DNA from: Candidatus Falkowbacteria bacterium
GTDB lineage: Bacteria > Patescibacteriota > Patescibacteriia > Patescibacteriales > WJLG01
NCBI GenBank assembly: GCA_963747695.1
Contig: CAVVFV010000010.1
Span: forward strand, 69,618-133,617
DNA length: 64,000 nt
Direction: 5' to 3'
Shown here: positions 9,731-48,453 of the stretch, piece after piece
Layout: the number at the start of each line of letters is the position of its first letter
Numbering within the stretch: the first letter of the stretch is position 1
Made by a program: the position numbers and the translations under genes
Notes under the pieces: generated by a model
Told to the model about the DNA's origin: nothing
What the model saw: the letters and a program-made list of their open reading frames with translations, nothing else
The model's database searches: none

Positions 9731-11122
9731 TCAATTATTAACTAGCGCTTCGCCGACCCGGAAGACATCGCCGGCGCCGATCAAGACAACCACCTGCCCG
9801 GGATCGACTGTTTCGCGCAGATATTTTTCACAAGCCGAAAGATCGGTAACATGGACAAAAATCTTACCCGGCTCGAATTCCTTCATCTTCCTGATCAAAT
9901 CTAAACTGGAAACGCCGCCTTGTTTCTCGCGAGCCGAACCGTAAATATCTAAAACCAAAACTTTGTCGGCATCAGAAAAACTTTGGGCGAATTCATTAAA
10001 CAAGGCTTTGGTGCGCGAAAAAAGATGGGGATGAAAAACCGCGATGATTTTTTCCTTGGGATAAGCGGCGCGCAAACCATCGAGCGTCGCCCTGATCTCG
10101 GTCGGGTGATGGCCGTAATCATCGATGATCGTCGCACCGTTGAATTTGCCCATGATTTTGGCCCGGCGGTCCGTGCCGGAAAATTCTTCCAGATAAGTTC
10201 GGATATCTTTCAAGTCCACGTCCAATTCGATGCTGGCGGCAATTACGGCCAAAGCGTTATAAACATTGTGTTTGCCGGAAAGACGGATCGAAAAATCGCC
10301 GATCACTTCGCCATCCATTTTAACTTTAAAAAATTGCTTGAGACCCTGCTGCTTGACGTCATAAGCGAAAAAATCCACGTCTTCCCGCTTCAAGGCATAA
10401 GTGATTATTTTGCCGCGGCAATTGACGTTGGCGATCTTGGCTATCTCGACATCATCAAAATTGGTCACCAAAAATCCTTTCTTAGGAATTTTTTCAATGA
10501 ATTTAACGAAAGCATCGATATAACTTTCCAAGGTGGGATAAAAATCATGATGATCATGATCGATATTATTCAGCAACACTCCTTTGGGATTTAAAAATCT
10601 TAATTTATTCTGATATTCATCGGCTTCGATCACGGCATAATCGGATTCGCCGAAAACTCCGGCGCCATCAAATTGCTCCACCCTCGCCGCCACCAAAACG
10701 TTCGGTTTCTTGCCAGCCTTCCACAAAACATAACCGAGCCAGGCGGTGGTGGTGGTTTTGCCGTGCGAGCCGCAAACGGCAATGCCATATAGCTGGTTGA
10801 AAGCTTCACCTAAAACTTCGCCGTATGTCATCGTCTTGAACTGGCGCGCCAAAGCGACCGCGACTTCGATATTAGTTTCGGGATTATAGGCCGAAGAATA
10901 AACAATCAGATCGGCGTCAGCCGGAATATTATCAGCGTTAAAGCCTTGGTTAACCTTGATGCCATACTTGGCTAAAACCTTATCGGTCATAAAAACTTCC
11001 GCCGTATCCGAGCCGCTCACCGCATAGCCGCGCACCGCCAAAAATTGCGCCAACATAGTCATGCCGACGCCCTTGATGCCGATCAGATAAATTTTCTTGA
11101 GCTTGGAGAGATCCATAAACAT
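9731..11122 (-). CDS. murC: UDP-N-acetylmuramate--L-alanine ligase
   Basis: 463 aa; GIKGVGMTMLAQFL, GSHGKTTTT, Mur ligase middle and C-terminal domains. Confidence 0.93.
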   Translation of the reverse strand: MFMDLSKLKKIYLIGIKGVGMTMLAQFLAVRGYAVSGSDTAEVFMTDKVLAKYGIKVNQGFNADNIPADADLIVYSSAYNPETNIEVAVALARQFKTMTYGEVLGEAFNQLYGIAVCGSHGKTTTTAWLGYVLWKAGKKPNVLVAARVEQFDGAGVFGESDYAVIEADEYQNKLRFLNPKGVLLNNIDHDHHDFYPTLESYIDAFVKFIEKIPKKGFLVTNFDDVEIAKIANVNCRGKIITYALKREDVDFFAYDVKQQGLKQFFKVKMDGEVIGDFSIRLSGKHNVYNALAVIAASIELDVDLKDIRTYLEEFSGTDRRAKIMGKFNGATIIDDYGHHPTEIRATLDGLRAAYPKEKIIAVFHPHLFSRTKALFNEFAQSFSDADKVLVLDIYGSAREKQGGVSSLDLIRKMKEFEPGKIFVHVTDLSACEKYLRETVDPGQVVVLIGAGDVFRVGEALVNN

Positions 11123-12844: not shown

Positions 12845-13996
12845 TCAATTGCGGGCGGCGCTGGTTGTTTGCCGACTGATATTAGCTACTATTCCCAAGC
12901 CGATTAGAGCCGCCATCAAGCTTGACCCACCCTGGGAAACCAGCGGCAGCGGCACGCCGGTCATCGGAATCAAGCCGATGACGCCGCCGACATTGAAAAA
13001 AGTCTGGATGAAGAGCCAGGAGGCCACGCCGATGCAGAGCAGTTTGCCGAAAAGATCAGGCGCATACTTTGCCGCAACAATGATCCGGTAAAAAAGGAAA
13101 AGATAGATTAACAGGAAGGCGGTGTCGAAAACAAAACCGATCTCCTCCGCCATCACGGCGAAGATCGAATCGCCGTAAACTTCGGGCAGATAATTAAATT
13201 TTTGTCTGGATTGACCCAGCCCGCGGCCGAAAATCCCGCCCGACCCGACAGCAATCAGCGATTGATTAAGCTGATAGCATTGGGCTTTCGCGCCCGCGGC
13301 CGTGTCGAAGGCGCATTCGAATCTTTGCATCTGATAAGGCTTGAAATGGATCATCACCACCAAGGCCAGCGCCGCCAAAAGTACCACAATGACCAGATGC
13401 GATATTTTCCCGCCGCCGACAAAATAAACAACCAGGGAAACGACGCCGATAATCGCCAGGGTACCGAAGTCCGGCTGTAACATCATCAAAGCGGCAATCA
13501 CCAATAACACCACCAGGAAAGGCCCGATACCCTGTTTGAAATCAGAAAGGTCTTTCCGCCGCGCTTCCAGCCAGGCGGCGAGATAAATCAGGAAAAATAT
13601 TTTGACGAACTCCGCCGGCTGGAGGGAAAAACCGAAAATATCCACCCAGCTTCTGGCCGTCTCGCCCTTAAGCGCCAGACTGGGAATAAAAACCAATGAT
13701 AAAAAGATGCATGAAAGGATCAGAAAGAAAAAAGCGTATTTGCGCCAGAGATGATAATCGATCTTATAACAAACGTAAAACATCGCCAGGCCGATCAGCG
13801 CGACTACCAATTGCCGCTTGAAGAAATAATCGCTCTCGCCGTAACGAGTGTAAGCGACAACTGCCGAAGCCGACGAAAGGAAAATCAGGCCGAGGACGAC
13901 CAAAAGCCCGATGGTGATCAAGAGTTTCTTGTCGGGCGCATGGGTTACGGCCGTATTTCTTTTTTGGATGGGATGACCCACTTTAAACATTAACAT
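12845..13996 (-). CDS. ftsW: SEDS-family peptidoglycan polymerase FtsW/RodA
   Basis: 383 aa and polytopic; QPAEFVKI, LPEVYGDSIFAVMAEEIGF, PLVSQGGSS. Confidence 0.9.
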   Translation of the reverse strand: MLMFKVGHPIQKRNTAVTHAPDKKLLITIGLLVVLGLIFLSSASAVVAYTRYGESDYFFKRQLVVALIGLAMFYVCYKIDYHLWRKYAFFFLILSCIFLSLVFIPSLALKGETARSWVDIFGFSLQPAEFVKIFFLIYLAAWLEARRKDLSDFKQGIGPFLVVLLVIAALMMLQPDFGTLAIIGVVSLVVYFVGGGKISHLVIVVLLAALALVVMIHFKPYQMQRFECAFDTAAGAKAQCYQLNQSLIAVGSGGIFGRGLGQSRQKFNYLPEVYGDSIFAVMAEEIGFVFDTAFLLIYLFLFYRIIVAAKYAPDLFGKLLCIGVASWLFIQTFFNVGGVIGLIPMTGVPLPLVSQGGSSLMAALIGLGIVANISRQTTSAARN

Positions 13997-13999
13997 GAT

Positions 14000-14099
14000 G
14001 CGAATACTACGAATTTTTCGCGAATACCGCGAACATTTTAACGAATTTCAATTCGCTTCGCGGATTTTGTGGTATTCGCGTAAAATTCGTTGTATTCGT
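14000..14099. repeat. Intergenic palindrome, CGAATAC-word family (F3), copy 1
   Basis: About 48-nt imperfect arms (GCGAATACTACGAATTTTTCGCGAATACC...TTTAACGAATT / reverse complement) centred at 14049-14051, between mraY and ftsW. Confidence 0.8.
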
Positions 14100-14108
14100 A
14101 TTATATGA

Positions 14109-15146
14109 CTAAAACTTGATATCCAGAAAAAATATCGCTAATCCGATGGCCGCGACGACGCCGGCGATCATCCAAAACCGCATAACGATCTTGGGTTCGG
14201 ACCAGCCGATCGCCTGAAAATGATGATGGATCGGCGAAGATTTAAAAACTTTTTTGCCATTTCTAAATTTCTTGGAAATCATCTGGATTATCACCGACAA
14301 TGATTCGATGACAAAAATAAAACCGACAAAAGGCAAGATAAAAACACTGTTAGTAAGCATGGCGATGACGCCCAAGGTAATGCCCAAGCTCATCGCCCCG
14401 GTATCGCCCATAATAAACCGCGCCGGCGTGATATTGAACCAGAGAAACGCGATCAGCGCGCCGATAATCACGCCGCAAAAAGCGGCCAGATCATACCGGC
14501 CCAAAGCGAAAGAGATGACTGAAAAAGAAGCGAAAGCGATCAGCAAAGTGCCGCCGGCCAGACCGTCTAAGCCGTCGGTTTCATTGACCGAGAAGGCGGT
14601 CGCGACGATAACAAAAATGAAGAACGGAATATACCAGGCGCCGATTTCCAGATTCGTCCAAAAAGGAACGTGCAAAGTCGTCCAGTCCAACTTGAAATAA
14701 AACCAGGCGGCGCCAAGCGCGGCGATTGCCGTATAAATCAACAGGCGGTGTTTCATCCGCAAGCCGCCCTTGCCCTGACCGCGGATATCCAACCAATCAT
14801 CAAACAAACCGACCAAAGCGCTAAAGATCAAAATTGCCAACGGCAAAAGGGTTTCCGAGCGGGAAAAAAAGTTCAGCGGCGAAAGACCGGGGAAAATCAA
14901 TCCGGCCAGATAAAAAAAAGCAATTAATATCAGCAAAGTTCCCCAGATCAGGATTCCGCCCATCGTCGGCGTCCCGGCTTTATGGAGGTGCAAAGCGGTA
15001 AAAATCGGGGTGTTGCCGTTGTTGCGGATCTGCTTGCCCATCTTATACTTATACAAAAAATGCGTCAGGATCGGCGTGCAGGCAAAGGCTAAAATAAAAG
15101 ACAGCGAAGTTAGCAATAAGATTCGGACGAGTTGAAGTTCAGGCAT
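14109..15146 (-). CDS. mraY: Phospho-N-acetylmuramoyl-pentapeptide transferase
   Basis: GTPTMGG, FDDWLDI, NETDGLDGLAGG, HHHF. The ORF-track start at 15173 is TTG inside a low-complexity spacer; the ATG at 15146 (MPELQLV...) is preferred. Confidence 0.93.
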   Translation of the reverse strand: MPELQLVRILLLTSLSFILAFACTPILTHFLYKYKMGKQIRNNGNTPIFTALHLHKAGTPTMGGILIWGTLLILIAFFYLAGLIFPGLSPLNFFSRSETLLPLAILIFSALVGLFDDWLDIRGQGKGGLRMKHRLLIYTAIAALGAAWFYFKLDWTTLHVPFWTNLEIGAWYIPFFIFVIVATAFSVNETDGLDGLAGGTLLIAFASFSVISFALGRYDLAAFCGVIIGALIAFLWFNITPARFIMGDTGAMSLGITLGVIAMLTNSVFILPFVGFIFVIESLSVIIQMISKKFRNGKKVFKSSPIHHHFQAIGWSEPKIVMRFWMIAGVVAAIGLAIFFLDIKF

Positions 15147-18302: not shown

Positions 18303-18719
18303 TTACATTTTTTCTTTGCTAAACAACCATTTTTGCCAAAGATAGGCGATGATAAAAACGACTGCCGCTTCCAGGATATCGGTGACGCCGACGCTCTTAT
18401 TGATGAAAAAAGCGATGATCAAGATGGCGGCCGGCAGCGCGAAAAGAAAAATATCGCTCTTTAGTTTATCAGTAAAATTCAGTTGCAAGGTCAAATCCGA
18501 ATTGCCGTCCCGCTCTTTCTTCTTGGCTCTCTCGCGCCAGAGCTTCAAATTGATTAAAAAAATCAGGACCAAGACTGCCAAGGGCGCCAGCGATTCCAAG
18601 AAGCGGCGAAAATTTTCAAAATTATCGCCGGCGATAAAATAAATAATCGCCAAACCGATAATAGTGATTCCAAAAATAAAATTGATAAAATCGATCAGCA
18701 GATCTTTAGCCGTGGTCAT
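18303..18719 (-). CDS. Hypothetical membrane protein
   Basis: 138 aa with about four hydrophobic helices; no motif recognised. Confidence 0.5.
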   Translation of the reverse strand: MTTAKDLLIDFINFIFGITIIGLAIIYFIAGDNFENFRRFLESLAPLAVLVLIFLINLKLWRERAKKKERDGNSDLTLQLNFTDKLKSDIFLFALPAAILIIAFFINKSVGVTDILEAAVVFIIAYLWQKWLFSKEKM

Positions 18720-18765: not shown

Positions 18766-19104
18766 TTATTTCATTCCCGGATTTTTTCCGCTTAAGGCCA
18801 GTTCGCGGACGATTTTGGTCAGATCTTTATCCATTTTTTCAATTTTCAAGCGCAACCGAAAATTCATATAGAATAATACTGCCACCGCGGCGTAAAGGAT
18901 GATTTGGATGCCGGAAGCGGAAAAACCCAAGGCGGCGGCCAGCCGATCGAGATCTTTGACAAAAATAACCCCGGCGGCCGCGATGATCCAGAACGCCAGC
19001 CAAAAAATAAATTCATTGGCGGAAACCTTAGCTTGTTTTTTTAAAACAAATAATCTGAAAACAAAAATCAGGATTATTATCAATGCGATTGCTTGCTGAA
19101 GCAT
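18766..19104 (-). CDS. DUF2304-type small membrane protein
   Basis: 112 aa. The C-terminal pattern LFYMNFRLRLKIEKMDKDLTKIVRELA and the position directly next to a GT2 gene match what I remember of DUF2304. Confidence 0.65.
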   Translation of the reverse strand: MLQQAIALIIILIFVFRLFVLKKQAKVSANEFIFWLAFWIIAAAGVIFVKDLDRLAAALGFSASGIQIILYAAVAVLFYMNFRLRLKIEKMDKDLTKIVRELALSGKNPGMK

Positions 19105-19172: not shown

Positions 19173-19856
19173 TTAGTCCATTAACTTGGCCAAAATTATA
19201 TCTTTGACAATTCTGATCCCTCCGGCTCCCATCCCGCGGCCGCCGAACAATCCCTGTCCGGTGCGATGATAAGTGACTTTGATTGGCACTTCTTTGATGA
19301 TTATTTTATTTTTAACGATTTTATACAATATCTCGCTATTGTGAGCCATGCCTTTTTGCTCAATCGGAATCTTCCGCCAGGCGGCTGCCGTCAACGCGCG
19401 AAAACCGGATTGCGGATCGGTCAATCTGACTCCCAACAGCCAGCGGTTAACCAGCCGAGCGATCGGCATAATCACTTTTTTCTTAAACGCCGGCATATTC
19501 GATTCTTTGCCTAAAAACCGCGAGCCCAAAACCGCCTCAGCTTCTCCGGCCAGCAACGGCGCCAAGACTTCCGGGATGTCGGCAACGGAAAATTGGCCGT
19601 CCGCGTCAAAATGAAAAATTATCTCCGCCCCGTTCCGCAAAGCATATTGATTGCCGGTTTCCAGCGACGCGCCCTGCCCGCTGTTGATCGAATGCCTTAA
19701 GACCGTAGCTCCGGCCAAACGGGCTAATTCCGCTGTTCGATCGGTCGAACCATCGTCCACCACGACCACTTCTTCCACCGACGGTTTGACTTTGGCCACC
19801 ACTTCGCTGAGATATTTTTCTTCGTTTAAGGCCGGAATAATGCAAAAAATCCTCAT
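19173..19856 (-). CDS. Glycosyltransferase family 2 (polyprenol-phosphate sugar transferase-like)
   Basis: 227 aa; IIPALNEEKYL, VVVDDGSTDRT, FDADGQ. Confidence 0.85.
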   Translation of the reverse strand: MRIFCIIPALNEEKYLSEVVAKVKPSVEEVVVVDDGSTDRTAELARLAGATVLRHSINSGQGASLETGNQYALRNGAEIIFHFDADGQFSVADIPEVLAPLLAGEAEAVLGSRFLGKESNMPAFKKKVIMPIARLVNRWLLGVRLTDPQSGFRALTAAAWRKIPIEQKGMAHNSEILYKIVKNKIIIKEVPIKVTYHRTGQGLFGGRGMGAGGIRIVKDIILAKLMD

Positions 19857-19961: not shown

Positions 19962-22900
19962 TTATCTCTTCGCGCCCGAATAAGCGATGGCGCGGACAAT
20001 GTTCCAGGCCAAGGCATTGGCCGGCGCATGTCCATAATTAAGGCGAAAAGTTTTAGTCGCGCTGATTTCGCTGGCCAAATTTCGTTGTGTTGGAATCAAA
20101 CCGTAAGCGATGACCATCACCGCGTTTTGATCGTAAGTATCAGCCAGCGCCGGACTGCGGCCATAGACTTTCTTAAATTCGAGCTTGGCCTGATTCTCCG
20201 CAGCTGCGCTGCGCGCACTCGGCCAACGTCCGTTACTGATCTTGATCACATCCGACCATTCCGCTTCCGAGTCGGGCAATTTACCATAAGCCTGGAAATA
20301 AGAATTAATCACTCCGGCCCGTTCGCCCGATCCTAAACGCAAAGTGCTCGGAGTGCCGTAGACGATAAAATCGTTGACTACTGTTTTGTCTGCGGCAGGC
20401 AGCGTTTGATCCAGATTAAAAATCGCCTGATATTTTTTTTGGCTGGCCTGCTCCCCGGCTGGATCGGCTGGGACGTTCAGATCGGCCAAAAGATTTTGCA
20501 CATTAGCGGAACTGACAATCCCGGCTTCAGATGAAATAATTTGTAATATTCCGGCTGACGGAAGAGCCGGAGCGACCGGGGTCAGCGGAGATGTCGGAAC
20601 AGAAACCAGATTGCTTGGAATTGTTCCGCAAACCATTGATCTGGCCGCCTGCTGGGCGGAGGTTAACGGACAGTTAGCCGGAGACTGGCTTAAAATATTG
20701 CGATATTGGAATCCATTGACGCAGCTTCCCCAATCACCATAGACCACGCTGGAACAGGATGGAAGACTGGGGGTGCCGCCACCCGAAACGGGGATGATTT
20801 CAAATGAGGCCGTGACGGAAATATCGGCCATGACATTGATATCGGTGCGGGGATTGGCCGTCGAACCATCGCTCCAGCTCGCGAACCGATAGCCGGGATT
20901 AGGCGTCGCGGTCACTGCCGAACCGTTCGCGCCGATGGCGACAACTTGAGCGGCATCGCCGGAGATCGAACCATTGGTTCCGGCCGAATATGCCAGCGAG
21001 CGGCTTTGGACTTGCACCGCGACGGTGGCGGAGTTATTGGTATAATCGGAATCGATCAGCCAGGATTTATCTTCTTTGCCGAAAACCACGTAGACTTTCC
21101 CGGCCTGATCTCCGCCTTCATTATTTTCATATGAACCGATCACCATGTCAGCATAACCATCGCCATTGAGATCGCCAAAATTTGCCGAATTATGATTTTT
21201 CAAAGTCAGCATTTCATTATCATCTTGTTCCCGCCAATAGGCCGCCGAAGCTGTCGCCACGCCTTGACCGGTCTCCCATCCCGAAGGCTTGCCCATCATC
21301 AGATATACCTTGCCGGTTGTCTGATCGACGCCGTTATTATCGATTTCAAAATCATTATAGCCGTCGGCATTGAAATCTCCCACTGAAGCCACTTCACGGA
21401 TCATGTCGGTAGCGGTGGCCCCGTTGTAAGAAGCATCTGAAGCACTGGCGACATTCTCATCCAACTGCCATCCCGATTTCTTGCCCAAAATGACAAAAAT
21501 TCTGCCGTCGAGAATCGGCGAACCGGAAATATGCAGCTCGTTCAAACCGATATCACCTATTCCGTCGCCGTTAACATCACCGATGCTGCCTTCAAAAATC
21601 AGTTTGTTTTTATACCCTTCACCCAAGAAAGAAGCATCGGCAACAGTTCCCGCATCCATCTGTTCCTGCCAGCCGGAAGTCCTGCCGAAAATAAGATAAG
21701 CTTTGCCGGCCAGCAGTCCGTTCTGGGAATTCTGGTCAGTGGAAAGCCCGATATCATTAATACCATCACCGTTGACGTCACCAAGCGGCTCTTCATTGTC
21801 ATAAATCAAATAGGGCAATTGGTTGTTGGCGGCTTCGCCGATAATCGAAGCATCGGCAGGCTGACCCTGCTGCCAGCCGCTCGGTCTGCCAAAAAATAAA
21901 AATGTTTCTCCTCGGCCGCCGTCGCCCTCGGTGTCAGAAATGCGAAAATCATCAATTCCGTCGCCATTGATATCTCCCAATGCCAACGGGGAATAAAGAT
22001 CATCGGTGGCTCCGGTAAAAGAGAATTCTGTCGAAGTACCGACCTGCTCGCCTGCCCAGCCTGATCTTTTACCGAAAAGAACGTAGTAAAAATTATGAAG
22101 ATCGATGAGACCCAAATCATCGATTCCGTCATGGTTGACGTCGCCGGGATTGCTGACCGGCTCGACGCCAGTGAGGGCCGTGTCAAAAAAATCAGTCGAA
22201 TTTCCGATATCGACCGGACCGGTCGGCCAGCCCGTTTTTTTCCCAAAAATTATATAGGTTATCAAGTTATCATCCGGCAAGGTTACGTCGACAAAGACCA
22301 AATCCTTCAATCCGTCGCCATTAAGATCAATCGGGTCGAGATAATCAAAACCGCCCAAAGCGCCTCCGACCCGATTGTCAAAATAATTAAGCACATTATC
22401 AGCCGAGGTTACCGGAACATCTTTCTGCCATCCGGTCGGCTTGCCGAAAATCACATTTTCATATCCATAAGTGCTGTCCTGGCTATAGCCGCTCGCGACA
22501 AAATCATCATAGCCATCGCCGTTGATATCTCCGACTGAATAATCGTTGACTCCCAGCCAATCCCCGTCGTGTTCGCCGACGAAGGAGGCGTCAGTCGAAG
22601 TATCGGTCAGGTTTCCCTTGGGTAAATCGATCGGCGTCGAAGTCGGCGTAAAACTTACTGTCGCCGTCGGGTCCATAACATCGCTGGAAAAATCTGTCGG
22701 AACTTGCACGGTCAAGGTCAAGGTCGTGGTGGCATCCGGAGTCATTGTTCCCACGGTCCAGAGTCCGGAAGAATAATCATATGATCCTTGCGCGGCCGAA
22801 GAAGATTGATAGATAAATTGGCTCGGCGCCTTGGCATCAGCCACTTGGACGCCGGGAGTAATCTCGCTGCCGGTATTGGCGACGGTAAAAGTGTAAGTTA

Positions 22901-23429
22901 TCGAATCGCCCGGATTCGGAGTCGGATTGTTCACAGTTTTAGTGACTGATAAATCGGTGGCACGAGCCATCCGGCGGATGACTTTGAAATTGGGAGAATA
23001 ATAGCGGTCATTGACGCCATTGCCCGCCGAGCTGAACACCCAGTCATCCAAGGTCGCCTTGGCGCTGCTTTCAATCTTAGTGATGGTTACATCGGAAAGA
23101 ATACCATCAGAAGGATTCCAATACTTTTCCGGCAGTCCGTCATTATTGATGTCAAGAAAAAAATCAGTATGACCGTCCCAGTTGAAATTGCCAGACTTGA
23201 CCACGCTGGTTGAACCGTCTGAATCATAGAATGTTTCAAAACCGTTGACCGTGTTAGCGTCATTATTGCGCGCCTGTTCCAAATTTCCGTCGCCATCAAC
23301 GTCAGCGTAGATAGTACTGGGCGGAGCAGCTTGGGTAACATTCTGGGCCAGCGGGAAAACCAGAGAAGAGAGAAAAATAAAAATCAATGAAACTATTTCC
23401 AATTTTTTTCTGAACGACTGTCTTTTCAT
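19962..23429 (-). CDS. Large secreted FG-GAP/VCBS-repeat protein with DUF11-like and InlB-B-type repeats
   Basis: 1155 aa. Signal-like N-terminus; TVNNPTPNPGDSITYTFTVANTG; ten DxNxDG-type loops (GDINGDGYDDF, GDVNGDGIDD ...); ATPNPGYRFASWSDGSTANPR; a C-terminal three-fold YG-x-x-P repeat. Confidence 0.85.
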   Translation of the reverse strand: MKRQSFRKKLEIVSLIFIFLSSLVFPLAQNVTQAAPPSTIYADVDGDGNLEQARNNDANTVNGFETFYDSDGSTSVVKSGNFNWDGHTDFFLDINNDGLPEKYWNPSDGILSDVTITKIESSAKATLDDWVFSSAGNGVNDRYYSPNFKVIRRMARATDLSVTKTVNNPTPNPGDSITYTFTVANTGSEITPGVQVADAKAPSQFIYQSSSAAQGSYDYSSGLWTVGTMTPDATTTLTLTVQVPTDFSSDVMDPTATVSFTPTSTPIDLPKGNLTDTSTDASFVGEHDGDWLGVNDYSVGDINGDGYDDFVASGYSQDSTYGYENVIFGKPTGWQKDVPVTSADNVLNYFDNRVGGALGGFDYLDPIDLNGDGLKDLVFVDVTLPDDNLITYIIFGKKTGWPTGPVDIGNSTDFFDTALTGVEPVSNPGDVNHDGIDDLGLIDLHNFYYVLFGKRSGWAGEQVGTSTEFSFTGATDDLYSPLALGDINGDGIDDFRISDTEGDGGRGETFLFFGRPSGWQQGQPADASIIGEAANNQLPYLIYDNEEPLGDVNGDGINDIGLSTDQNSQNGLLAGKAYLIFGRTSGWQEQMDAGTVADASFLGEGYKNKLIFEGSIGDVNGDGIGDIGLNELHISGSPILDGRIFVILGKKSGWQLDENVASASDASYNGATATDMIREVASVGDFNADGYNDFEIDNNGVDQTTGKVYLMMGKPSGWETGQGVATASAAYWREQDDNEMLTLKNHNSANFGDLNGDGYADMVIGSYENNEGGDQAGKVYVVFGKEDKSWLIDSDYTNNSATVAVQVQSRSLAYSAGTNGSISGDAAQVVAIGANGSAVTATPNPGYRFASWSDGSTANPRTDINVMADISVTASFEIIPVSGGGTPSLPSCSSVVYGDWGSCVNGFQYRNILSQSPANCPLTSAQQAARSMVCGTIPSNLVSVPTSPLTPVAPALPSAGILQIISSEAGIVSSANVQNLLADLNVPADPAGEQASQKKYQAIFNLDQTLPAADKTVVNDFIVYGTPSTLRLGSGERAGVINSYFQAYGKLPDSEAEWSDVIKISNGRWPSARSAAAENQAKLEFKKVYGRSPALADTYDQNAVMVIAYGLIPTQRNLASEISATKTFRLNYGHAPANALAWNIVRAIAYSGAKR

Positions 23430-23438: not shown

Positions 23439-24698
23439 TTAACTGATAATTTTTAAAACCTCGTCGACCGGGACTAAGCCGTTTAGTGTTTTGATTAATG
23501 CGTCTTCGGCCAAAGAATAGCCGTCTTGTTTCTTAAATTCATTCTTAATTGCGGAAAAATGTCCGGTCTTGATCAAATCTTTAACGGCCGGGGTAATTTC
23601 CCTGACTTCAAAAATCCCGATCTTGCCTGCCGAGCCGGAATTACGGCAACGCGAGCAGCCGCGACTCTTGTAAAAAACCAGCTCCAGGGGAGAGGCTATC
23701 CTTTTCGCGATAATGTTATCTTTCTTCAGCCGGGGCAATAATTTATTGAGTGATAAATTTGCTTCCAGCCGGCGCCAATTTTCTTGGCTGATCTTCTGCC
23801 TGGTCAAACAATAAGGGCAATTTTTGTCGACGAGGCGCTGAATGATGATCAATTTAGTGTTGGCTGAAAACACTGACAGCGGCAAACCTAAATCACGTAA
23901 TAATTCCAGGGTGCCGGCCAGATCGCGACTATTGATTCCGGCCAAAACAAAATGACCGGCCGCGGCTAAATGAAAGGCGGCCTCGGCCGTTTCTGCATCA
24001 TTGACCTCGCCGATCATCACCACGTCGGGATCTTGGCGCCGGAGCTCATTTACCGCCGCGCCCGAGCTGAAACCCACGCGGGGATTTATCCGACTTTGGT
24101 TTATTTCCGGCAAATCCGCCGCGACATCTTTTTCGACCGTCGCAATATTCAATTCCGGACAATTAAGAAAATCGATCAAACTATAAAGCGTGGTGATTCG
24201 TCCCGAATCATTGGTTCCGATTACGGCGATCAAACCGGCGCCAGCTGCCAGCTTGGCTTTAACTTTCGGCAAAGCCTGGGCGTTGAACCCCAACCGTCCC
24301 AAGCCGGGAAGCTCGAATTTTTCCTTGGTTAAACTGACCACGATCTTTTCTCCGCTCGCCACAGGATGAACTCCCAGGGAAAATATTATTTTGTAACCCA
24401 AATAATCTTTTTTAAAACTTCCTTTTTCCGGCGAATTATCCCGGGGACAATCCAACCCGGCCATTTCTTTGACGCCTGAGATCACCGCGGCTTCGATCTT
24501 TTTCGACAAGTAAAGGGTTTTTTTCAATCCGCCGTTGGCCATAAAATCAACCGCCAGCTCATCGCCGCGCGATTCAAAATAAATCTCGTCAGCCCCACAG
24601 CCGATCGCAAAATTAAAAATCTTGTCGATCACCCGGATCGCTCGGATATCGGCGCTGAGAGACAATTGTTCCTTTATTTCTTTTTTAAGAGATAACAT
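23439..24698 (-). CDS. GspE/PilB-family secretion ATPase homologue with degenerate catalytic motifs
   Basis: 419 aa. The family scaffold is present (GADEIYFES, DPDVVMIGEVNDAETA, CPYC...CSRC). However, Walker A reads GTNDSGRITT where GPTGSGK(S/T)T is expected, and the His box reads AGHFVLAGINS where TGHLVLSTLHT is expected. Confidence 0.8.
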   Translation of the reverse strand: MLSLKKEIKEQLSLSADIRAIRVIDKIFNFAIGCGADEIYFESRGDELAVDFMANGGLKKTLYLSKKIEAAVISGVKEMAGLDCPRDNSPEKGSFKKDYLGYKIIFSLGVHPVASGEKIVVSLTKEKFELPGLGRLGFNAQALPKVKAKLAAGAGLIAVIGTNDSGRITTLYSLIDFLNCPELNIATVEKDVAADLPEINQSRINPRVGFSSGAAVNELRRQDPDVVMIGEVNDAETAEAAFHLAAAGHFVLAGINSRDLAGTLELLRDLGLPLSVFSANTKLIIIQRLVDKNCPYCLTRQKISQENWRRLEANLSLNKLLPRLKKDNIIAKRIASPLELVFYKSRGCSRCRNSGSAGKIGIFEVREITPAVKDLIKTGHFSAIKNEFKKQDGYSLAEDALIKTLNGLVPVDEVLKIIS

Positions 24699-24801
24699 AA
24701 AAAATTAAATAACAAATATTCAATATCCAATATCCAAACAATATTCCAATATTTTAATATTAAAATATTTTTTTGATATTGGTTATTTTTTATTGGATAT
24801 T
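24699..24801. repeat. Intergenic palindrome, F2 family, copy 3 (overlaps the end of the upstream CDS)
   Basis: The right arm GATATTGGTTATTTTTTATTGGATATT (24775-24801) is identical to copy 1 over 23 nt. It includes the last three codons and the stop (24790-24801) of the UXS-like gene. Confidence 0.8.
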
Positions 24802-25815
24802 CTCTTCTATCCCCTTCAAGCCTTTGCTCGCTCGCAGCTCGTCAATCGTCTTTTCCAATCCTTTATCCAGAGTAACAACCGGCAGCCAGCCCAGATTATT
24901 GGTAGCCAAAGTAATGTCCGGTAAGCAAAGTTCGGTCATGAAAAAGTGCGCCGACTCATAAACAATTTTTGACTGCGAACCGGTCTGCTCGATTATTCGT
25001 TGTGCCAGGTCGGCCAGCTTGACGTCGACATCAGAGCCGACATTAAGCGGACCGACCAGATCGGTTTCCATTATTTTCAACGCCGCATCGATGACGTCGG
25101 AAACATAGCAGAAAGATGAAGTAAAACCCTCGTCGCCGTAAATCACCAAGTCCTTGTTGTCCAAAGCATTGCTGACGAAATCCGGGATCATCTGATTATC
25201 GTTCAAAGGCATCCGCGGACCGTAAGTGCGGAAAATGCGGATAATCTTGGCATCAACGCCGTGAATTTCCCGATACGTATGGATGAAGGTCTCCGCGAAC
25301 CGCTTGCCTTCGTCATAGCAGGCTCGTTCGCTTAAAAAATCCACCGCGCCGATATCATCCTCTTTGATTTTCGGATTATTAATGCGGCGCGGGCCGTAAA
25401 CCACCGAGGACGAAAAATGCAATATCTTCGCCTCGTATTTTTTGGCCAGCTCCAAAACGTTTTTAATGACATAGGAATTAGCCAGCAAAGTGGCTTCGCA
25501 ATTCTTCTGGAAATTCTTGGCCGAATTCGGACAGGCCAGATTATAAATTTCCTGGATGCCCTGGAATTGGATCTTGAATTTTTGCAACGACTGCTCGTTT
25601 TCCAGATCGATCGGTTGGCTCAAATCCTGGCGCAGGAAGGCAAAATCCGGCTCGGCGAAAAGATGGTCGATGTTCCGTTCATTGCCGGTGGAAAAATTAT
25701 CCAGGCAGATCACTTTGCAGGTCTTAATTAGTTCGTCGCAGAGATGTGAACCGATAAAACCCGCTCCCCCGACGACCAGTACGTTTTTCTTTTCAAATAT
25801 CGCGTGTTTAGCCAT
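24790..25815 (-). CDS. UDP-glucuronate decarboxylase-like SDR (UXS family)
   Basis: 341 aa; VVGGAGFIGSHL, ACYDEGKRFAET, RIFRTYGPRM. Confidence 0.85.
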   Translation of the reverse strand: MAKHAIFEKKNVLVVGGAGFIGSHLCDELIKTCKVICLDNFSTGNERNIDHLFAEPDFAFLRQDLSQPIDLENEQSLQKFKIQFQGIQEIYNLACPNSAKNFQKNCEATLLANSYVIKNVLELAKKYEAKILHFSSSVVYGPRRINNPKIKEDDIGAVDFLSERACYDEGKRFAETFIHTYREIHGVDAKIIRIFRTYGPRMPLNDNQMIPDFVSNALDNKDLVIYGDEGFTSSFCYVSDVIDAALKIMETDLVGPLNVGSDVDVKLADLAQRIIEQTGSQSKIVYESAHFFMTELCLPDITLATNNLGWLPVVTLDKGLEKTIDELRASKGLKGIEENIQ

Positions 25816-25840: not shown

Positions 25841-26440
25841 TTATAAATTTTTTACCTCTTTGACCATTTTCAATTCATTTAAAATTCCAATGCCTCTTAA
25901 ATATTTATGGTTAATCAATTTTTTTGCCTTAGAAAGAGTAATTTTATTGGTGTAAGCCCTGCCGTACTTTGCCAAGAGCCAATCGATGATATCGTCGAAT
26001 TTGAATCCGCGCAGAGTCCGCCAATAAAAGAATAGTGGCAGGATATCAAAAGCGGACATCGCATCGGCGTTGGAAACAATTTTTTCTTCGATAGTTTTAG
26101 GCCTTGGTTGTTTGGCGGATCGATGAGCCAAAATAATATTTTTTACTTTATCAATTTTAACTTGCGGGTAATTCAATTTTTTTAATATTTTTTCCGCCCT
26201 TACCGCCCCCAAAATATGATGATCATCCTCCTTGGCGGCCCTTTTTCCAATTTTAGGCAGGCGGCCGATATCGTGAAGCCAAGCCGCAATTTCCACCAAC
26301 TCTTTATCTTTAACTTGATATTCTCGCGCTAAAAGCAGCGAATACTTTACCACCGGCGCAAAATGATAATAAAAATCTTCCTTATAATCAGTTTCATCCC
26401 AAACAATCTTCTTTATTTTTTCAACAATATTTTTTAGCAT
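25841..26440 (-). CDS. HD-domain protein
   Basis: WLHDIGR and ILAHR motifs. The ATG at 26440 is preferred over the TTG at 26449. Confidence 0.7.
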   Translation of the reverse strand: MLKNIVEKIKKIVWDETDYKEDFYYHFAPVVKYSLLLAREYQVKDKELVEIAAWLHDIGRLPKIGKRAAKEDDHHILGAVRAEKILKKLNYPQVKIDKVKNIILAHRSAKQPRPKTIEEKIVSNADAMSAFDILPLFFYWRTLRGFKFDDIIDWLLAKYGRAYTNKITLSKAKKLINHKYLRGIGILNELKMVKEVKNL

Positions 26441-26472
26441 GCGTTTCAAAAATATAACAATTAATTACCTTG

Positions 26473-26820: not shown

Positions 26821-29082
26821 TTAATTTTTAATTGAAATTGTTCCCACATTCACTCCGCCCATAAAAGTTGAGTCAAAGGCGTAATAAGAATCGAGGAAAT
26901 TGCCTTGCAAATCAAAAACTCGCACATGCGGACCGCCGCCCGGACCGGCGCCGGTAATTATTTCAGCCAAGCCGTCGCCGTTGGTGTCGCCGGCAGCGAT
27001 GTTGACGCCGCCGTGGAAGCTTTGGTCATAGGCGAAGAACTGACTCTGTAATTTTCCCAGGTTGTTAAAAATACGGATTTGCGGACCGCCGCCTTTGCCC
27101 GGGGCGGTCACGATCTCCTCTTGATGGTTAACCACGCTGCCGTTGATATTAGCGATCGCGACGTTAACGCCGCCGTGAAAATTCTGGGCATAGGCCAGAA
27201 ACTGACTTTTGACTTTACCTGCCGAGGTGAAAATCTTGACTTGAGGCTGAAAGCCCGAACCGGGCGCCGTAACGATCTCAAACTTGCCGTCGCCGTCCAC
27301 GTCTCCCGCGGCGATATTCACTCCGCCCAAAAATTTGGAGTCATAGGCGATGAATTCATTTTTCAGCTTGCCTTGATTATCAAAAACTTTTATATCCGGT
27401 TTCAAGCCTGAGCCGGGCGCGGTAACAATCTCATCTTTGCCGTCGCCGTCAAAATCTCCGGTTGCCACCTTAACCCCGCCGCGGAAATCAGCCGCATAGG
27501 CATAAAATTGGCTTTTTAATTTCCCGTCCGCGCTGAAGACTTTTACGCGACCGGCAACCCCGGAACCGGGACCGACGATGATCTCGGTTTTATTATCACC
27601 ATCGACGTCTCCGGACGCCAAATAAACTCCGCCATTCGGATTGGCGTTAAATTTGGTGATCAAGGTGTCGTCGGGCTGTACTTCTCTCACTTCGGCCGAA
27701 TCGCCGGAGGCCGGCGCTAAGAGCAGCTTAACGCTTTGATCTTGTTTTTCTCGATCCGCCAAGGCGACGGCGTTTAAAGCGTTAACCCGGCCACTGCCCA
27801 ATTCGCCCTTATAATTAGGATTTAATTTGCTGATATCGTCGGCGGTGGCCAAAAGAATATCCTTGATCTGCTGCGCTTTGGCTCCGGGATCTGTCCCCTC
27901 TAATAATGCCAAAACACCCACTACCACCGGAGTCGCCATCGAAGTTCCCGACCAATAACCGCTATAATATTGATCAAGGACGGTATTATTGATCTGCTCG
28001 GTCGGCGCATAAACGGCAGTACTGAAAAAACCTTCTCCCGGAGCGGCAATGTCCACGCATTTCGAACCATAACTGGAAAAAGAGGCTTTTTGATCGACCG
28101 CATCAGTCGCGGCCACCCCGATCACCATATTATTATTGCCGTCATCGCAAGCCGGATACATCGGAGTTATATCAAGATCGTATCCTTGACCTTGTGATTC
28201 CTCGTTGCCCGCCGCCGCCACGACGATCACTCCGGCGTTATAAGCGCGGGTGATCGCTTCATATAAAGCGCGGCTATAATCCAGGCCGACAAAACTCAGA
28301 TTGATTATCGCGGCCCGGTTGTTAATAGCATAATCGATGGCTCTGACCACATCGGAAGTCCGCCCCTCGCCTTTATCATCCAAAACTTTAAGCGACATGA
28401 TCTTCGCCTGCCAGGTAATGCCGGTGATCCCCTTGCCGTTATTGCCGACGGCGGCGATGATCCCGGCGACGATCGTGCCATGCATCACTCCGGCTTCGGT
28501 GAAACCATCTTCAAATTTAGGCGAGGGATCGGGCACATTGTTCACAAAATCCCAGCCATGCGCGTCGTCGATAAAACCGTTATGATCATCGTCGATTCCG
28601 TTGCCCGGGATCTCACCGGGATTGGTCCAGATGTTGGCCGCCAGATCGGGGTGATCGATTTGCACGCCGGTATCGATCACGGCGATCACCACGTTGGGAG
28701 TCTGCCGGATCCTGTCCCAGGCTAAGGGCGCGCGAATGCGGTCCAAATACCACTGTTTGGTATAATCGGGATCGGACGGGATGACCGATGCCTGATAAAC
28801 ATAGTTCGGTTCGGCATATTCCACATCGCTCCTTTTTTCATACTGCGCGATAAGATCACTGATTTTGACGCCGGCCGGAACTGCAACAGTCGCCGGTTCA
28901 GGGGAAGTTTTATACTTCACCAAAATTTCATCGCTGACTGCCGGCGCCGTTGCCGGAACTTTATCCGTCGGGCCGGAAGATTGAACGGCTCTGGCCGTTA
29001 AAGGCGACTGGGAAAAACAAAATCCGCCGATGAGGATCAGCACGAATATTTTACCGAAAAAATTGGCGAGTTTTCCCGTCAT
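26821..29082 (-). CDS. Secreted subtilisin-like (S8) serine protease with C-terminal FG-GAP-like repeats
   Basis: 753 aa with a signal-like N-terminus. The catalytic triad contexts are VIDTGV, HGTIVAG and GTSMATP. Five C-terminal repeats of the type GDVDGDGK-EIVTAPGSG...VKVF. Confidence 0.9.
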   Translation of the reverse strand: MTGKLANFFGKIFVLILIGGFCFSQSPLTARAVQSSGPTDKVPATAPAVSDEILVKYKTSPEPATVAVPAGVKISDLIAQYEKRSDVEYAEPNYVYQASVIPSDPDYTKQWYLDRIRAPLAWDRIRQTPNVVIAVIDTGVQIDHPDLAANIWTNPGEIPGNGIDDDHNGFIDDAHGWDFVNNVPDPSPKFEDGFTEAGVMHGTIVAGIIAAVGNNGKGITGITWQAKIMSLKVLDDKGEGRTSDVVRAIDYAINNRAAIINLSFVGLDYSRALYEAITRAYNAGVIVVAAAGNEESQGQGYDLDITPMYPACDDGNNNMVIGVAATDAVDQKASFSSYGSKCVDIAAPGEGFFSTAVYAPTEQINNTVLDQYYSGYWSGTSMATPVVVGVLALLEGTDPGAKAQQIKDILLATADDISKLNPNYKGELGSGRVNALNAVALADREKQDQSVKLLLAPASGDSAEVREVQPDDTLITKFNANPNGGVYLASGDVDGDNKTEIIVGPGSGVAGRVKVFSADGKLKSQFYAYAADFRGGVKVATGDFDGDGKDEIVTAPGSGLKPDIKVFDNQGKLKNEFIAYDSKFLGGVNIAAGDVDGDGKFEIVTAPGSGFQPQVKIFTSAGKVKSQFLAYAQNFHGGVNVAIANINGSVVNHQEEIVTAPGKGGGPQIRIFNNLGKLQSQFFAYDQSFHGGVNIAAGDTNGDGLAEIITGAGPGGGPHVRVFDLQGNFLDSYYAFDSTFMGGVNVGTISIKN

Positions 29083-29202: not shown

Positions 29203-29583
29203 TCAGGCCAGCAGTTCGGATAGCAATTCGGCGAATTGCCCGATTTGCAACGGTTTGCAAACAAAACCGTTATAAAGATGGCGAGCGTTTTTGTCCGGAA
29301 TGGCCACGTTCGCGGGATCTGCCGCGACGAGAAAGATAAAACCGTCATACCCGGCTCCGCGCATGGCCACGGCGATCGGATAGGCAAGCTCGTCTTTAAG
29401 AAGTTTGCCGTCCAGAATAGCAAAGGCGATTTCCGCAAGATGAGTCAAAGCAAATTCCTTTGCCGCGTAAAATTCGTCGATGATCGTCACTGAATACCCA
29501 GGGAAAAAACCTTTAATCAAATCCAAATAGAACTTCTTTACTTCAGCATTGTCTTCGGCGATCAAAATAGTCTTTTTTTCCAA
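29203..29583 (-). CDS. Single-domain response regulator (REC only), orphan
   Basis: 126 aa; ILIAEDN, AILDGKL, FVCKPL. The TTG start is preceded by AAGGAGG at 5-nt spacing. Confidence 0.75.
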   Translation of the reverse strand: MEKKTILIAEDNAEVKKFYLDLIKGFFPGYSVTIIDEFYAAKEFALTHLAEIAFAILDGKLLKDELAYPIAVAMRGAGYDGFIFLVAADPANVAIPDKNARHLYNGFVCKPLQIGQFAELLSELLA

Positions 29584-35420: not shown

Positions 35421-36980
35421 CTATTTCTTTTCCAACAATAAAACTTGCGCCGTATCATTCGAGCCATTAGGCCAACTACCTACTTCAGTGAAACCGCGGG
35501 CTTTAAGCCAATCATAGACGATGTTATAAATGCCAGGGAAAGCGCCATTGCCGTCGGAAACAAGAAAAAAAACTCGTCGGGAGTCTCCCAAAAGATCACT
35601 CAATTGTCCGACAGTAGCCTGATTGGTCGTCGGATAAATATTGGATTTAATCGCCGAGAGCAGTTGATCGCCGCTGCGATATTTTTCATCCAAGGGAGCG
35701 CCGACAGGAAGTTTTCCCCGGTAATAAAAATTAAGCGACAAAACATTAGTATAGAGCGACCCGACGACTTTATCGCCGGGGCGTTCATTTTGGCTAATGT
35801 AATCAGCCGCGCCTTGCCAATTATCACTAATCAATGTCACCCGGGACAGGGCGGAAAACGATAAGACGGTCAGAACAATATAAAGGAAGATCACAACCGC
35901 CCGCCAGCTCCGGTCTAACCGGAAAAAACCATAGCCGAGCAGTAAAAAAAGACCGATGGCCGGAATTATGGCGTAACGCAAAACATATAAATGTACAGAA
36001 AACAAACCGGCGAAGGAAAGAATAAAAATCACCAGGCAGAAAAAGGTAGCGGGAGTCAGGAAAACCCGCACATGGAAAGATTTTATTTTGTCCCAGTTGA
36101 CTGCCGCAAAAGCCGAAAATCCTAAAATAGCCAGCAGAGAAAAAGCCAAAACTTCGAAAAAGTATTGATTGAAAGGCGTCAAATACATTAAAGAATCAAA
36201 AAAGGGAATGATCCAAAATTGTGCGCCTTGAGTTTGAAAATACCAGGCGCTCCCCCCGAGGGAGCTAAGATGCAGCCGCCAAAAATACCAGAACCAAGAA
36301 CCGTAAACGGCGAAGATGATCAGCGTCGGAAGCCAAAAATTTCTCAGTATCTCTTGAATCTTCTTTTGCCGGGTTAAAAGGAGATAAAGCAGATAGACTC
36401 CCTCGAGCGCGATCACCAGCCCGGCGGTCAGATGGGAAAATAAAGCCGTTAAAGTAAAGAGCGTAAAGAGAGCAGCAATGGTAAACATTCCCCGGCCGCG
36501 CGCCTTGATCAATTTCCAAAAAAATAAAAAGGAGAGGACGGCCGTCAAAAATAGCATCGAATACATCCTGGCCCAGACGCCGTAAAAACAAAAGAGCGGC
36601 GAAAAAGCATAAAGCGCGGCAGCCGCCAAGCCGGCCCGGCGCGAAGCGAAGATTTCTTTCCCCAAAAAATACAAAGCGATGATCGCCGCCAAACTTAATA
36701 AAACCGAGGACAGATGAGCCGAAATTTCCGAGGTACCAAAAATCGCGAACCAAAAATGCAAAAAATAATAATGGAGCGGCGGATGCATTTCCCATTTAAC
36801 ATAAGACCAAATTTGCGCCAACGGTTTTTCCGCCACCGAGAAAGAGATCATTTCATCGAAGGTCAAGCCTCGCAGCAGGGTAAGCACCCAAAGCCGGGCA
36901 GCCAAACCGGCCGCGGTTATGACCGACAAAATAAACCAAGTCTGTTTAAATATTTTTTTGGAAAAAAATTCCGGCTTCAT
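35421..36980 (-). CDS. Polytopic GT-C glycosyltransferase (ArnT/PMT, GT39/GT83-like)
   Basis: 519 aa with more than 10 hydrophobic helices and a C-terminal soluble domain. It directly follows a polyprenol-phosphate sugar synthase gene. Confidence 0.7.
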   Translation of the reverse strand: MKPEFFSKKIFKQTWFILSVITAAGLAARLWVLTLLRGLTFDEMISFSVAEKPLAQIWSYVKWEMHPPLHYYFLHFWFAIFGTSEISAHLSSVLLSLAAIIALYFLGKEIFASRRAGLAAAALYAFSPLFCFYGVWARMYSMLFLTAVLSFLFFWKLIKARGRGMFTIAALFTLFTLTALFSHLTAGLVIALEGVYLLYLLLTRQKKIQEILRNFWLPTLIIFAVYGSWFWYFWRLHLSSLGGSAWYFQTQGAQFWIIPFFDSLMYLTPFNQYFFEVLAFSLLAILGFSAFAAVNWDKIKSFHVRVFLTPATFFCLVIFILSFAGLFSVHLYVLRYAIIPAIGLFLLLGYGFFRLDRSWRAVVIFLYIVLTVLSFSALSRVTLISDNWQGAADYISQNERPGDKVVGSLYTNVLSLNFYYRGKLPVGAPLDEKYRSGDQLLSAIKSNIYPTTNQATVGQLSDLLGDSRRVFFLVSDGNGAFPGIYNIVYDWLKARGFTEVGSWPNGSNDTAQVLLLEKK

Positions 36981-46216: not shown

Positions 46217-46594
46217 CTATAAAATGGTTTTTTCTTTTTTAGCTTTCAAAATTAATTTATCAAAATCTTCCCGGGGTATAAGCGGGCAAAACTGACCCCA
46301 AATCCACTTGTTCTTTGCCCTACCAATTTTGCCAACTATATAATATCCAACCCTATATTCAATATCTCCAATTTTATTTGAATTTTTATGAGTTATAATT
46401 CCATCAGATTTTTCTTTTCTCAATCTTTCAACAACAAAGACCTTTTTATCCAAATTTGATTGTATCATCAAGGTCATCGCTTCTTTAATAAAATAAAACC
46501 TGCCTTTTCTGCCAATATCTTTCATTCCTATTAGCTTATCTTTGTCTTGCCAAAATTGTTGCTTTTTTCTCTTTATAAATTCTTGTGCTGTCAT
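46217..46594 (-). CDS. Hypothetical protein, third gene of the AT-rich cassette
   Basis: 125 aa. The ATG overlaps the upstream stop (ATGA, 46591-46594). No motif recognised. Confidence 0.55.
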   Translation of the reverse strand: MTAQEFIKRKKQQFWQDKDKLIGMKDIGRKGRFYFIKEAMTLMIQSNLDKKVFVVERLRKEKSDGIITHKNSNKIGDIEYRVGYYIVGKIGRAKNKWIWGQFCPLIPREDFDKLILKAKKEKTIL

Positions 46595-46956: not shown

Positions 46957-46983
46957 AATTTTCTCTATTGCGAGCGATAAATA

Positions 46984-48422: not shown

Positions 48423-48453
<31 letters not shown>

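Follow-up and report, generated by a model that had tools for sequence, protein, structure and literature searches.

Whether a protein built like a secretion motor still does any work in the cell after its motor residues have been replaced is the question raised by one gene of Candidatus Falkowbacteria bacterium. Herein, we analyzed this gene, called X, within a stretch of 64,000 nucleotides (nt) of contig CAVVFV010000010.1, the whole of which is referred to as the window (Table 1). X lies between a nucleotide-sugar epimerase gene and a gene for a giant secreted FG-GAP surface protein. The initial annotation had described X as a GspE/PilB-family ATPase with destroyed nucleotide-binding motifs and had proposed the FG-GAP protein as its partner. 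According to the results below, X most likely descends from a PilB assembly ATPase of Patescibacteria and is conserved in a catalytically disabled form. Judged from its sequence, it is very probably dead as a catalyst yet functional, and we see an even chance that, taken as a whole, it serves as an operon-linked, noncatalytic component of envelope glycosylation.

The family assignment of X was assessed by profile, sequence, and structure comparison, and all three agreed with the annotated family. Pfam T2SSE (PF00437) matched residues 20-415 of X over profile positions 8-369 of 370 with an E value of 2.3e-61, and the phmmer comparison with V. cholerae EpsE (1p9r) gave an E value of 1.4e-49. The closest solved structures by sequence were EpsE, Thermus PilF, and the PilB proteins of Myxococcus and Geobacter (E values of 1e-44 to 1e-49), and the identity of X to solved PilB/GspE proteins was approximately 27-33% over ~400 residues. 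An AlphaFold2 model generated with 23 orthologues as input had a mean predicted local distance difference test score (pLDDT) of 78. When this model was searched with Foldseek, the top matches were Geobacter PilB (E value of 4e-34, template modelling score of ~0.6), Thermus PilF, and EpsE (E values of ~1e-33), with BfpD, DotB, and PilT ranking lower. The N1/GSPII domain (T2SSE_N, PF05157) had no match in X, which has 419 amino acids (aa) compared with ~560-600 aa for canonical PilB. Every NCBIfam equivalog score fell far under its cut-off, with 224 versus 630 bits for GspE (TIGR02533) and 220 versus 676 bits for PilB (TIGR02538). By fold, X is the N2D and CTD core of an assembly ATPase of the GspE/PilB family. 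A role in anti-phage defence was also considered and was rejected, as PADLOC gave no match for X or the FG-GAP protein.

The motifs of X were compared with those of EpsE in a HMMER alignment and with ~80 canonical PilBs, a set that includes many patescibacterial sequences and shows almost no variation at any of the six motifs. Since the EpsE alignment was ungapped and in register through every motif, the motifs of X are altered and not displaced; the possibility that intact motifs lie shifted in the sequence was rejected on the same ground, the register holding throughout the catalytic core. The changes first reported in Walker A and the His box are thus genuine. Walker A, GPTGSGKSTT in EpsE, reads GTNDSGRITT in X, so that the P-loop is G161-TNDS-G166-R167-I168. 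The replacement of Lys by Arg (R167) and of Ser/Thr by Ile (I168) was as annotated. However, the glycines were not lost as had been stated, because G161 and G166, the two that define GxxxxGK[ST], are retained and only the typical P-T-G (162-164) is gone. I168 is private to the window genome, whereas position 168 is Thr in at least 90% of the orthologues. The Walker B region, DPDVVMVGEIRD in EpsE and DPDVVMIGEVND in X, ends in IGEVND; the catalytic Glu (E231) is found in at least 90% of the X orthologues and the next Arg is gone, being Asn in the window and variable in the family. For the Asp box, TVEDPIE has become TVEKDVA, and family-wide the first Glu (E189) is invariant while D, P, and the second Glu are gone; either Glu of the box may be the counterpart of E357 of PilB-Gm.

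The elements that act between subunits were changed as well. The His box is TGHLVMSTLHTN in EpsE and AGHFVLAGINSR in X. Its core reads AGHFVLAGINS instead of TGHLVLSTLHT, with the first His mostly retained in the family and the second gone in all members, and the Thr between the two histidines (equivalent to T411) is Gly in 97% of the family. The arginine-finger region, PQDGR...D-V-R-V-S...GERVVMRL, reads PEKGS...I-F-S-L-G...GEKIVVSL. Both N2D Arg fingers are gone, the first through the change of PQDGR to PEKGS and the second through the change of the Arg of D-x-R-V-S to S107 (Ser in 81% of the family). X also lacks the Arg of GE(K/R)xVxRL (GEKIVVSL), a position variable in the family. The tetracysteine motif CPYC...CSRC, noted from the start, is intact (C294/C297/C348/C351) and invariant in 23 of 23 orthologues, with a loop of 50 residues between the Cys pairs. 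A zinc-binding CM domain of the form CXXC-X21-40-CXXC has been described as specific to assembly ATPases (PMC5061722).

McCallum et al. listed the Walker A and B residues, the catalytic Glu, two Arg fingers, and an Asp-box Glu as completely conserved and the His-box His as highly conserved, and assigned the His box and its Thr to inter-subunit coupling. Set against these roles, X lacks most of the residues used for Mg-ATP binding, hydrolysis, and subunit coupling. Every member of the X family was degenerate across the six motifs, with no intermediates within the family and a position far outside canonical PilB variation. ATP hydrolysis, which had been doubted from the beginning, appears unlikely, and the loss of the catalytic apparatus goes further than was claimed, taking in the Arg fingers, the Asp box, and the N1 domain.

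Could X simply be a decaying remnant without function? The homologue search first returned 24 proteins (23 full length, 402-428 aa) with 42-100% identity and PF00437 alone, followed by a sharp break, the next matches being ordinary PilBs of ~570 aa with no more than 33% identity. An exhaustive profile search and a word-index search added P0121-P0123, P0127, P0128, P0272, P0273, P0277-P0280, and P0284. In total, the family comprises ~35 orthologues of 35-72% identity and ~402-432 aa (most 415-421), all without N1. The named sources are Patescibacteria or Falkowbacteria, and two labels of metagenome-assembled genomes (Nanoarchaeia and Methylomirabilis) look like binning errors. A metagenome scan yielded five X loci, two of them duplicates of earlier loci; the family is rare. 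In favor of decay, X evolves faster than its neighbors, with 64-72% identity where the epimerase has 91-92%. However, even at 35% identity the orthologues have intact reading frames of similar length, and the Nei-Gojobori dN/dS (ratio of nonsynonymous to synonymous rates) of the window X versus its orthologues was 0.14-0.20, compared with 0.035-0.075 for the epimerase, values that are approximate as dS is near saturation. The mean column identity within the family was 66%. In a column comparison with canonical PilB, 38 positions were identically conserved in both, and 55 positions at least 85% conserved in canonical PilB, many arginines among them, were altered or variable in X. Another 24 positions were at least 85% conserved in X alone, including K9, R22, K26, K96, K103, G254, K328, and H380. 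Together, the 24 new and 55 freed or changed positions indicate a protein under new constraint and not one in decay. With these data and the invariant tetracysteine motif, the idea of a one-off pseudogene was rejected, and a functionless remnant is extremely unlikely. As X is conserved and under selection, the earlier suggestion of a regulatory or scaffold-like derivative is a reasonable one.

Another possibility is that X remains an NTPase by way of noncanonical residues, such as Arg167 in place of the Walker A Lys. The P-loop glycines, Ser165, E189, and E231 are conserved, and ~85% of the members have Arg or Lys at the Walker A Lys position. However, C, Q, T, I, L, or V stands there in six otherwise well-conserved orthologues. 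The family as a whole has also lost the Walker B Arg, the two Arg fingers, the second Glu of the Asp box, and the second His of the His box, and in the window the Walker A Thr is Ile as well. This free variation at the Walker A Lys position makes residual activity most improbable. Its distribution also gives an order of events in evolution: the deep branches (P0022, P0023, P0123, P0284, L010, and P0128) retain GxxxxGKT with the Asp box, His box, and Arg fingers already gone; outside them Arg predominates, and the free variation is found in the crown group.

Proteins outside the X family were also seen in these searches. Two short PilB-like proteins without N1 were found in other contexts. The one in L025 (7950..9164, plus strand) reads GPAHSGKTTA, TIEDQSEY, GEIED, and TGHQLFSTLPAK at its motifs and has as neighbors a T2SSF-like gene (10282..11058, plus strand; a 258-aa PilC-like protein) and a DUF4012 gene (3359..5365, minus strand). 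The other, P0145 in L090 (3409..4620, plus strand), reads GPTNSGRTTT and has no His box, and a 546-aa T2SSE protein and a response regulator are encoded a few genes downstream. Both were rejected as functional intermediates, as they lie outside the X family in different, pilus-type contexts. Their partial motif loss, in surroundings unlike those of X, suggests that short PilB paralogues seem to have degenerated more than once in Patescibacteria. Finally, P0124-P0140 are proteins of ~1000 aa whose scores in the exhaustive profile search fell between those of the X family and of canonical PilB, each with two or three separate matches to the profile. Seven of them, inspected over their full length, are covalent duplications of the assembly ATPase, with two complete canonical PilB modules in tandem and GPTGSGKTTT in each. 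A Rosetta-stone fusion was rejected on the basis of these seven, since PilB-PilB tandems with additive scores are uninformative on X.

To what X might be devoted was approached through its gene neighborhood, which was compared across 16 independent X loci with readable surroundings. The epimerase/dehydratase gene lay directly upstream of X in all 16 and was never split from it. Downstream of X, the family 2 glycosyltransferase (GT2) gene with its DUF2304 gene was found in 15 of the 15 loci that reach far enough; the sixteenth (L094) ends within the FG-GAP gene. The gaps were as small as 3, 5, 8, and 10 nt between the epimerase gene and X, and 2 nt, 16 nt, or a 4-nt overlap between X and the GT2 gene. 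The epimerase-X-GT2 order persisted at 40% X identity, where the S8 protein was 52% and MreB 85% identical to the window. By comparison, the slot between the S8 and epimerase genes is variable: it is empty in L002 and L004, and it encodes an HD-domain protein in the window, an S51 peptidase in L001, and a PNPOx-like protein in both L005 and the P0014 locus. Since slots around it vary in this way, the constancy of the epimerase-X-GT2 order is more than frozen gene order. A weak consensus scan found no terminator-like site on the minus strand from 25815 to 19962, which mildly supports co-transcription. The spacer that separates the epimerase gene from X may act as a promoter or operator, or may be plain AT-rich sequence. 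It is conserved in the closest relatives only (L001 and L009), the gap being 3-10 nt in other lineages, and L002 and L092 carry ATTGTT-type repeats at its position instead. A structured RNA or riboswitch near X was rejected, as Rfam at the gathering threshold gave only 23S and 5S rRNA over the window.

The initial annotation had placed X beside the FG-GAP giant as a possible chaperone-like partner, on the basis of their spacing. The junction was confirmed base by base: the TAA of X (23441-23439) is followed by 9 nt (aatcgtgat) and an ATG at 23429. Such spacing suggests co-transcription, and possibly translational coupling, in the window genome, and an FG-GAP orthologue directly follows X in five of the 16 loci (the window, L001, L004, L009/L091, and L094), one of these lineages (L094) being outside the crown group. 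However, the gene is missing from the other 11 (L002, the P0014 and P0017 loci, L005, the P0022 locus, L006, L010, the P0122 locus, L088, L089, and L092), where X is still conserved under purifying selection. On a neighbor-joining tree, the positive loci fell in the crown group and the P0019 subclade, all deep branches were negative, and the negative L002 was nested among positive crown relatives. This placement points to an FG-GAP gene that was gained late and then lost in places, or gained repeatedly. The gene is also the fastest-evolving one of the block, with 48-58% identity where the epimerase has 91-92%, and the N-terminus of its product reads, as judged by eye, as an ordinary Sec-type signal peptide. 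X, moreover, is without the means to energize export. Conservation of the gene pair, when checked in relatives, therefore broke down, both in L002 and on the deep branches, and the distribution over five of 16 loci shows that the pairing is not a conserved relationship; the constant partners are the epimerase, present in 16 of 16, and GT2/DUF2304. The proposal that X specifically assists the FG-GAP protein in folding, export, or assembly is thus largely refuted by the distribution of the gene, and we regard it as very unlikely. The FG-GAP giant would rather be an accessory passenger of the operon, possibly a substrate, and not an obligate partner of X.

Alternatively, X might modulate the type IV pilus, co-assembling with or capping an active PilB, or docking on PilC or PilM, as a non-hydrolyzing subunit that tunes extension; its location in a glycosylation operon would then be incidental or only co-regulatory. 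X retains N2D, CTD, and the tetracysteine domain that mark assembly ATPases, and a genuine PilT is encoded in the window. Type IV pili are widespread in bacteria of the candidate phyla radiation (CPR) (PMC6744442), and ATPase-ATPase interactions, including possible PilB-TfpB hetero-oligomers, have been discussed (PMC11656802). The short, partly degenerate PilB-like proteins of L025 and L090 adjoin pilus genes, lying beside T2SSF and near the 546-aa T2SSE protein, respectively. However, none of the 16 X loci has pilB, pilC/gspF, pilM, or pilin genes beside X. In agreement with what had been annotated, no pilC, pilM, pilN, pilO, or pilin gene lies within ~10 kb on either side of X in the window, and no prepilin motif was found in any frame of the 64-kb window. 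X also has no N1 domain. Replacement of its inter-subunit elements (Arg fingers, His-box Thr and His), in part by residues newly conserved in the family such as G254, lowers the likelihood of mixed rings with a ~30%-identical PilB. On balance, a pilus modulator is rather improbable.

The constant partners of X point to lipid-linked sugar synthesis. The best NCBIfam match of the GT2 protein was PpgS (NF058614; E value of 3e-42 over positions 4-224 of 227), at 144 bits versus the 370-bit equivalog cut-off, and the second best was AglJ, an archaeal dolichyl-phosphate enzyme. For the epimerase, all NCBIfam equivalogs were under their cut-offs. GacJ and Rv3632 belong to the DUF2304 family. [quoted passage not shown] In both systems, an epimerase (Rv3634c on the mycobacterial side) supplies the nucleotide sugar, and the GT-C enzymes GacL and Rv3779 move the lipid-carried sugar to the wall polymer outside the membrane (bioRxiv 10.1101/180810; PMC9671496). 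The PMT_2 protein of the window, which has an orthologue at the equivalent position in L001, L004, and the P0017 locus, is a candidate for an extracytoplasmic transferase that uses the lipid-linked sugar.

As a component of envelope glycosylation, X would no longer be a motor but a nonenzymatic scaffold or regulator on the cytoplasmic side of the membrane, where it would organize or control the synthesis of lipid-linked sugar for surface proteins or wall polymers. The replacement of the His-box Thr by a conserved Gly and the loss of the Arg fingers should disfavor the closed, ATP-bound interface and leave the apo-like conformer, so the conformation of X is probably fixed in a state resembling apo PilB. 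A PilB of M. xanthus that carries a Walker A mutation and is deficient in hydrolysis still drives exopolysaccharide production (Black et al. 2017, PMC5544727; PMC11656802), and the nucleotide-free conformation has been proposed as the signaling state (PMC5544727; PMC11656802). This precedent, together with the interface losses of X, makes a scaffold or regulator plausible. Any specific mechanism, in contrast to the general role, can be put forward only tentatively, with chances that are at best well short of even.

One such mechanism, which we consider unlikely, is a pseudoenzyme sensor, in which the remnant P-loop pocket would bind a nucleotide or nucleotide sugar without hydrolysis and allosterically switch the GacI/GacJ-like synthase. 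The residues G161, S165, G166, T170, E189, Q201, D223, and E231 of this pocket are conserved, and PilB-style inter-lobe movements would relay ligand occupancy to the membrane synthase. If this holds, a pilus-motor chassis has been reused as a metabolic or regulatory switch for surface glycosylation in episymbiotic CPR bacteria, and the glycosylation of adhesins (FG-GAP proteins, perhaps pilins) may be coupled to precursor supply. As for the pathway as a whole, PMT-type enzymes O-glycosylate secreted proteins in actinobacteria, and by this analogy the FG-GAP giant and the S8/FG-GAP peptidase may, speculatively, be substrates of the pathway.

Several results weigh against a role of X in glycosylation. 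All members share the synteny of the block over more than 25 kb, and the phylogenetic range of the family is narrow; the adjacency of X may therefore partly reflect shared ancestry. No gene fusion of X to the epimerase, GT2, or DUF2304 was found. X evolves three to four times faster than the epimerase, and in the window and its closest relatives it is set apart from the epimerase gene by the ~90-nt AT-rich spacer. The pLDDT of the X model is lowest (55-69) precisely at the P-loop and Asp box. In addition, the characterized GacI/GacJ and PpgS/Rv3632 systems work without a PilB-like protein.

From high to low coordinate on the minus strand, the block runs PMT_2, DUF4012, an unannotated 365-aa open reading frame (ORF), MreB, a family 4 glycosyltransferase (GT4), a small protein, the S8/FG-GAP peptidase, the HD-domain protein, the epimerase, X, the FG-GAP protein where present, GT2, DUF2304, a membrane protein, GT4, GT4, a membrane protein, MraY, FtsW, a small ORF, MurG, and MurC. 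By this content, the wider block is an envelope-biogenesis region. DUF4012 has been linked to capsule/exopolysaccharide clusters in Gram-positive bacteria. The ORF at 29203..29583 (minus strand, 126 aa) has no Pfam match and is conserved in the block, its counterparts in related loci having 126-142 aa. In L088 an 82-aa Response_reg protein is encoded at its position, and the product of the ORF may be a degenerate receiver-like protein. RVT_1 genes were found in or beside the envelope block in the P0122 locus (13080..14544, locus coordinates) and the P0014 locus (525..1559), that of the P0122 locus adjoining a bAvd/23S_rRNA_IVP-type gene, which suggests diversity-generating retroelements near these surface-protein genes.

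Table 1. Coordinates of X, its neighbors, and other features of the window
Feature	Position	Strand	Details
Conserved membrane protein	18303..18719	-	137-139 aa; follows DUF2304 in most loci reaching that far
DUF2304 small membrane protein, GacJ/Rv3632 homologue	18766..19104	-	PF10066, E 1e-18; 68 nt past GT2
GT2, probable GacI/PpgS type (candidate polyprenyl-phosphate-sugar synthase)	19173..19856	-	Pfam Glycos_transf_2, E 9e-22
Secreted DUF11/FG-GAP/InlB-B-repeat surface protein	19962..23429	-	1155 aa; between X and GT2
X, PilB/GspE-derived pseudo-ATPase (predicted)	23439..24698	-	419 aa, ATG start; N2D and CTD only
Spacer between epimerase gene and X	24699..24789	-	91 nt, AT-rich, repeated (G)GATATTG units
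NAD-dependent nucleotide-sugar epimerase/dehydratase (extended short-chain dehydrogenase/reductase)	24790..25815	-	Pfam Epimerase, E 6e-38; GDP_Man_Dehyd, E 5e-36
HD-domain protein	25841..26449	-	Weak Cas3-HD-like and RVT_1 matches
Secreted S8 subtilase with FG-GAP repeats	26821..29082	-	Conserved block member upstream of epimerase
PMT_2 membrane glycosyltransferase (GT-C fold)	35421..36980	-	PF13231, E 3e-12
5S rRNA	48085..48198	-	Rfam
23S rRNA	48307..52086	-	3780 nt versus 2925-nt Rfam model
LAGLIDADG homing-endonuclease ORF within 23S rRNA gene	49319..49858	-	E 1e-17
PilT/PilU-family retraction ATPase	52820..53854	-	TIGR01420, 422 versus 319-bit cut-off; P-loop GPTGCGKST intact

Elsewhere in the window, the PilT gene, ~29 kb from X, encodes the only canonical secretion-ATPase P-loop; it adjoins RNase III, NusB, and the rRNA operon and is the sole pilus gene in its vicinity. 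The excess length of the 23S rRNA gene and the LAGLIDADG ORF inside it indicate that the gene is interrupted by an intron, as is common in CPR bacteria. No 16S rRNA was found in the window. Beside the 5S rRNA gene, the stretch 46217..48137 (minus strand) has the lowest GC content of the window (0.35) and holds four consecutive ORFs (125, 121, 226, and 155 aa) with no Pfam match. The 155-aa one may be spurious, as it overlaps with the 5S rRNA gene.

PilB/GspE motors are, to our knowledge, regarded as universally conserved and obligately catalytic engines. Searches of the open-access full-text literature found no account of a PilB/GspE paralogue that is naturally degenerate and none of a GacI/GacJ-type operon with a PilB-like gene. 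A 2024 review of PilB and its cofactors discusses several PilB homologues, none of them inactive (PMC11656802). If the role in glycosylation is true, X is a clear case of a secretion motor turned pseudoenzyme, outside a pilus gene neighborhood and fixed in a lipid-linked-sugar operon, and bears on cell-surface construction in Patescibacteria. Surface structures of these bacteria are thought to mediate host attachment. The significance is limited by the small and narrow family and by a mechanism deduced from sequence and gene order only.

Compared with known systems, X shares the bilobed N2D and CTD fold, the C-terminal tetracysteine zinc domain, and the catalytic Glu of the atypical Walker B strand with the PilB/GspE proteins (EpsE, 1P9R/4KSR; G. 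metallireducens PilB, 5TSG/5TSH; T. thermophilus PilF, 5IT5/5OIU). It differs from them in lacking N1/GSPII and the catalytic motifs, in a Cys-pair loop that is longer than the published 21-40 residues (PMC5061722), in never being encoded with pilC, pilM, or pilins, and in falling under every NCBIfam equivalog cut-off. PilU with PilT and TfpB with PilB in Acinetobacter baylyi are paralogues that need the primary motor and give a precedent for division of labor (PMC11656802). However, both are motor ATPases within pilus systems, whereas X has lost these motifs of catalysis and is encoded away from pilus genes.

On the glycosylation side, the window resembles the GacI/GacJ system of S. pyogenes and the PpgS/Rv3632 system of M. 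tuberculosis and C. glutamicum in having an epimerase, a GT2, a DUF2304 protein, and the GT-C protein PMT_2. It departs from them in placing a PilB-like protein between the epimerase and the GT2, and in a GT2 that scores under the PpgS equivalog cut-off; X, if its role is true, would be an unexpected component added to this class of envelope-modification systems. A precedent in function is M. xanthus PilB, in which a non-hydrolyzing PilB is tied to glycan production independently of pilus assembly. That protein, however, is a genuine motor into which a mutation was engineered; its place is upstream of the Dif chemosensory pathway, and it contains an N-terminal domain that binds cyclic di-GMP, whereas X is a naturally degenerate, N1-less paralogue inside a glycolipid-synthesis operon. 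If our reading of X in envelope glycosylation is correct, X would be a natural, testable counterpart of the nucleotide-free M. xanthus PilB that signals to polysaccharide synthesis.

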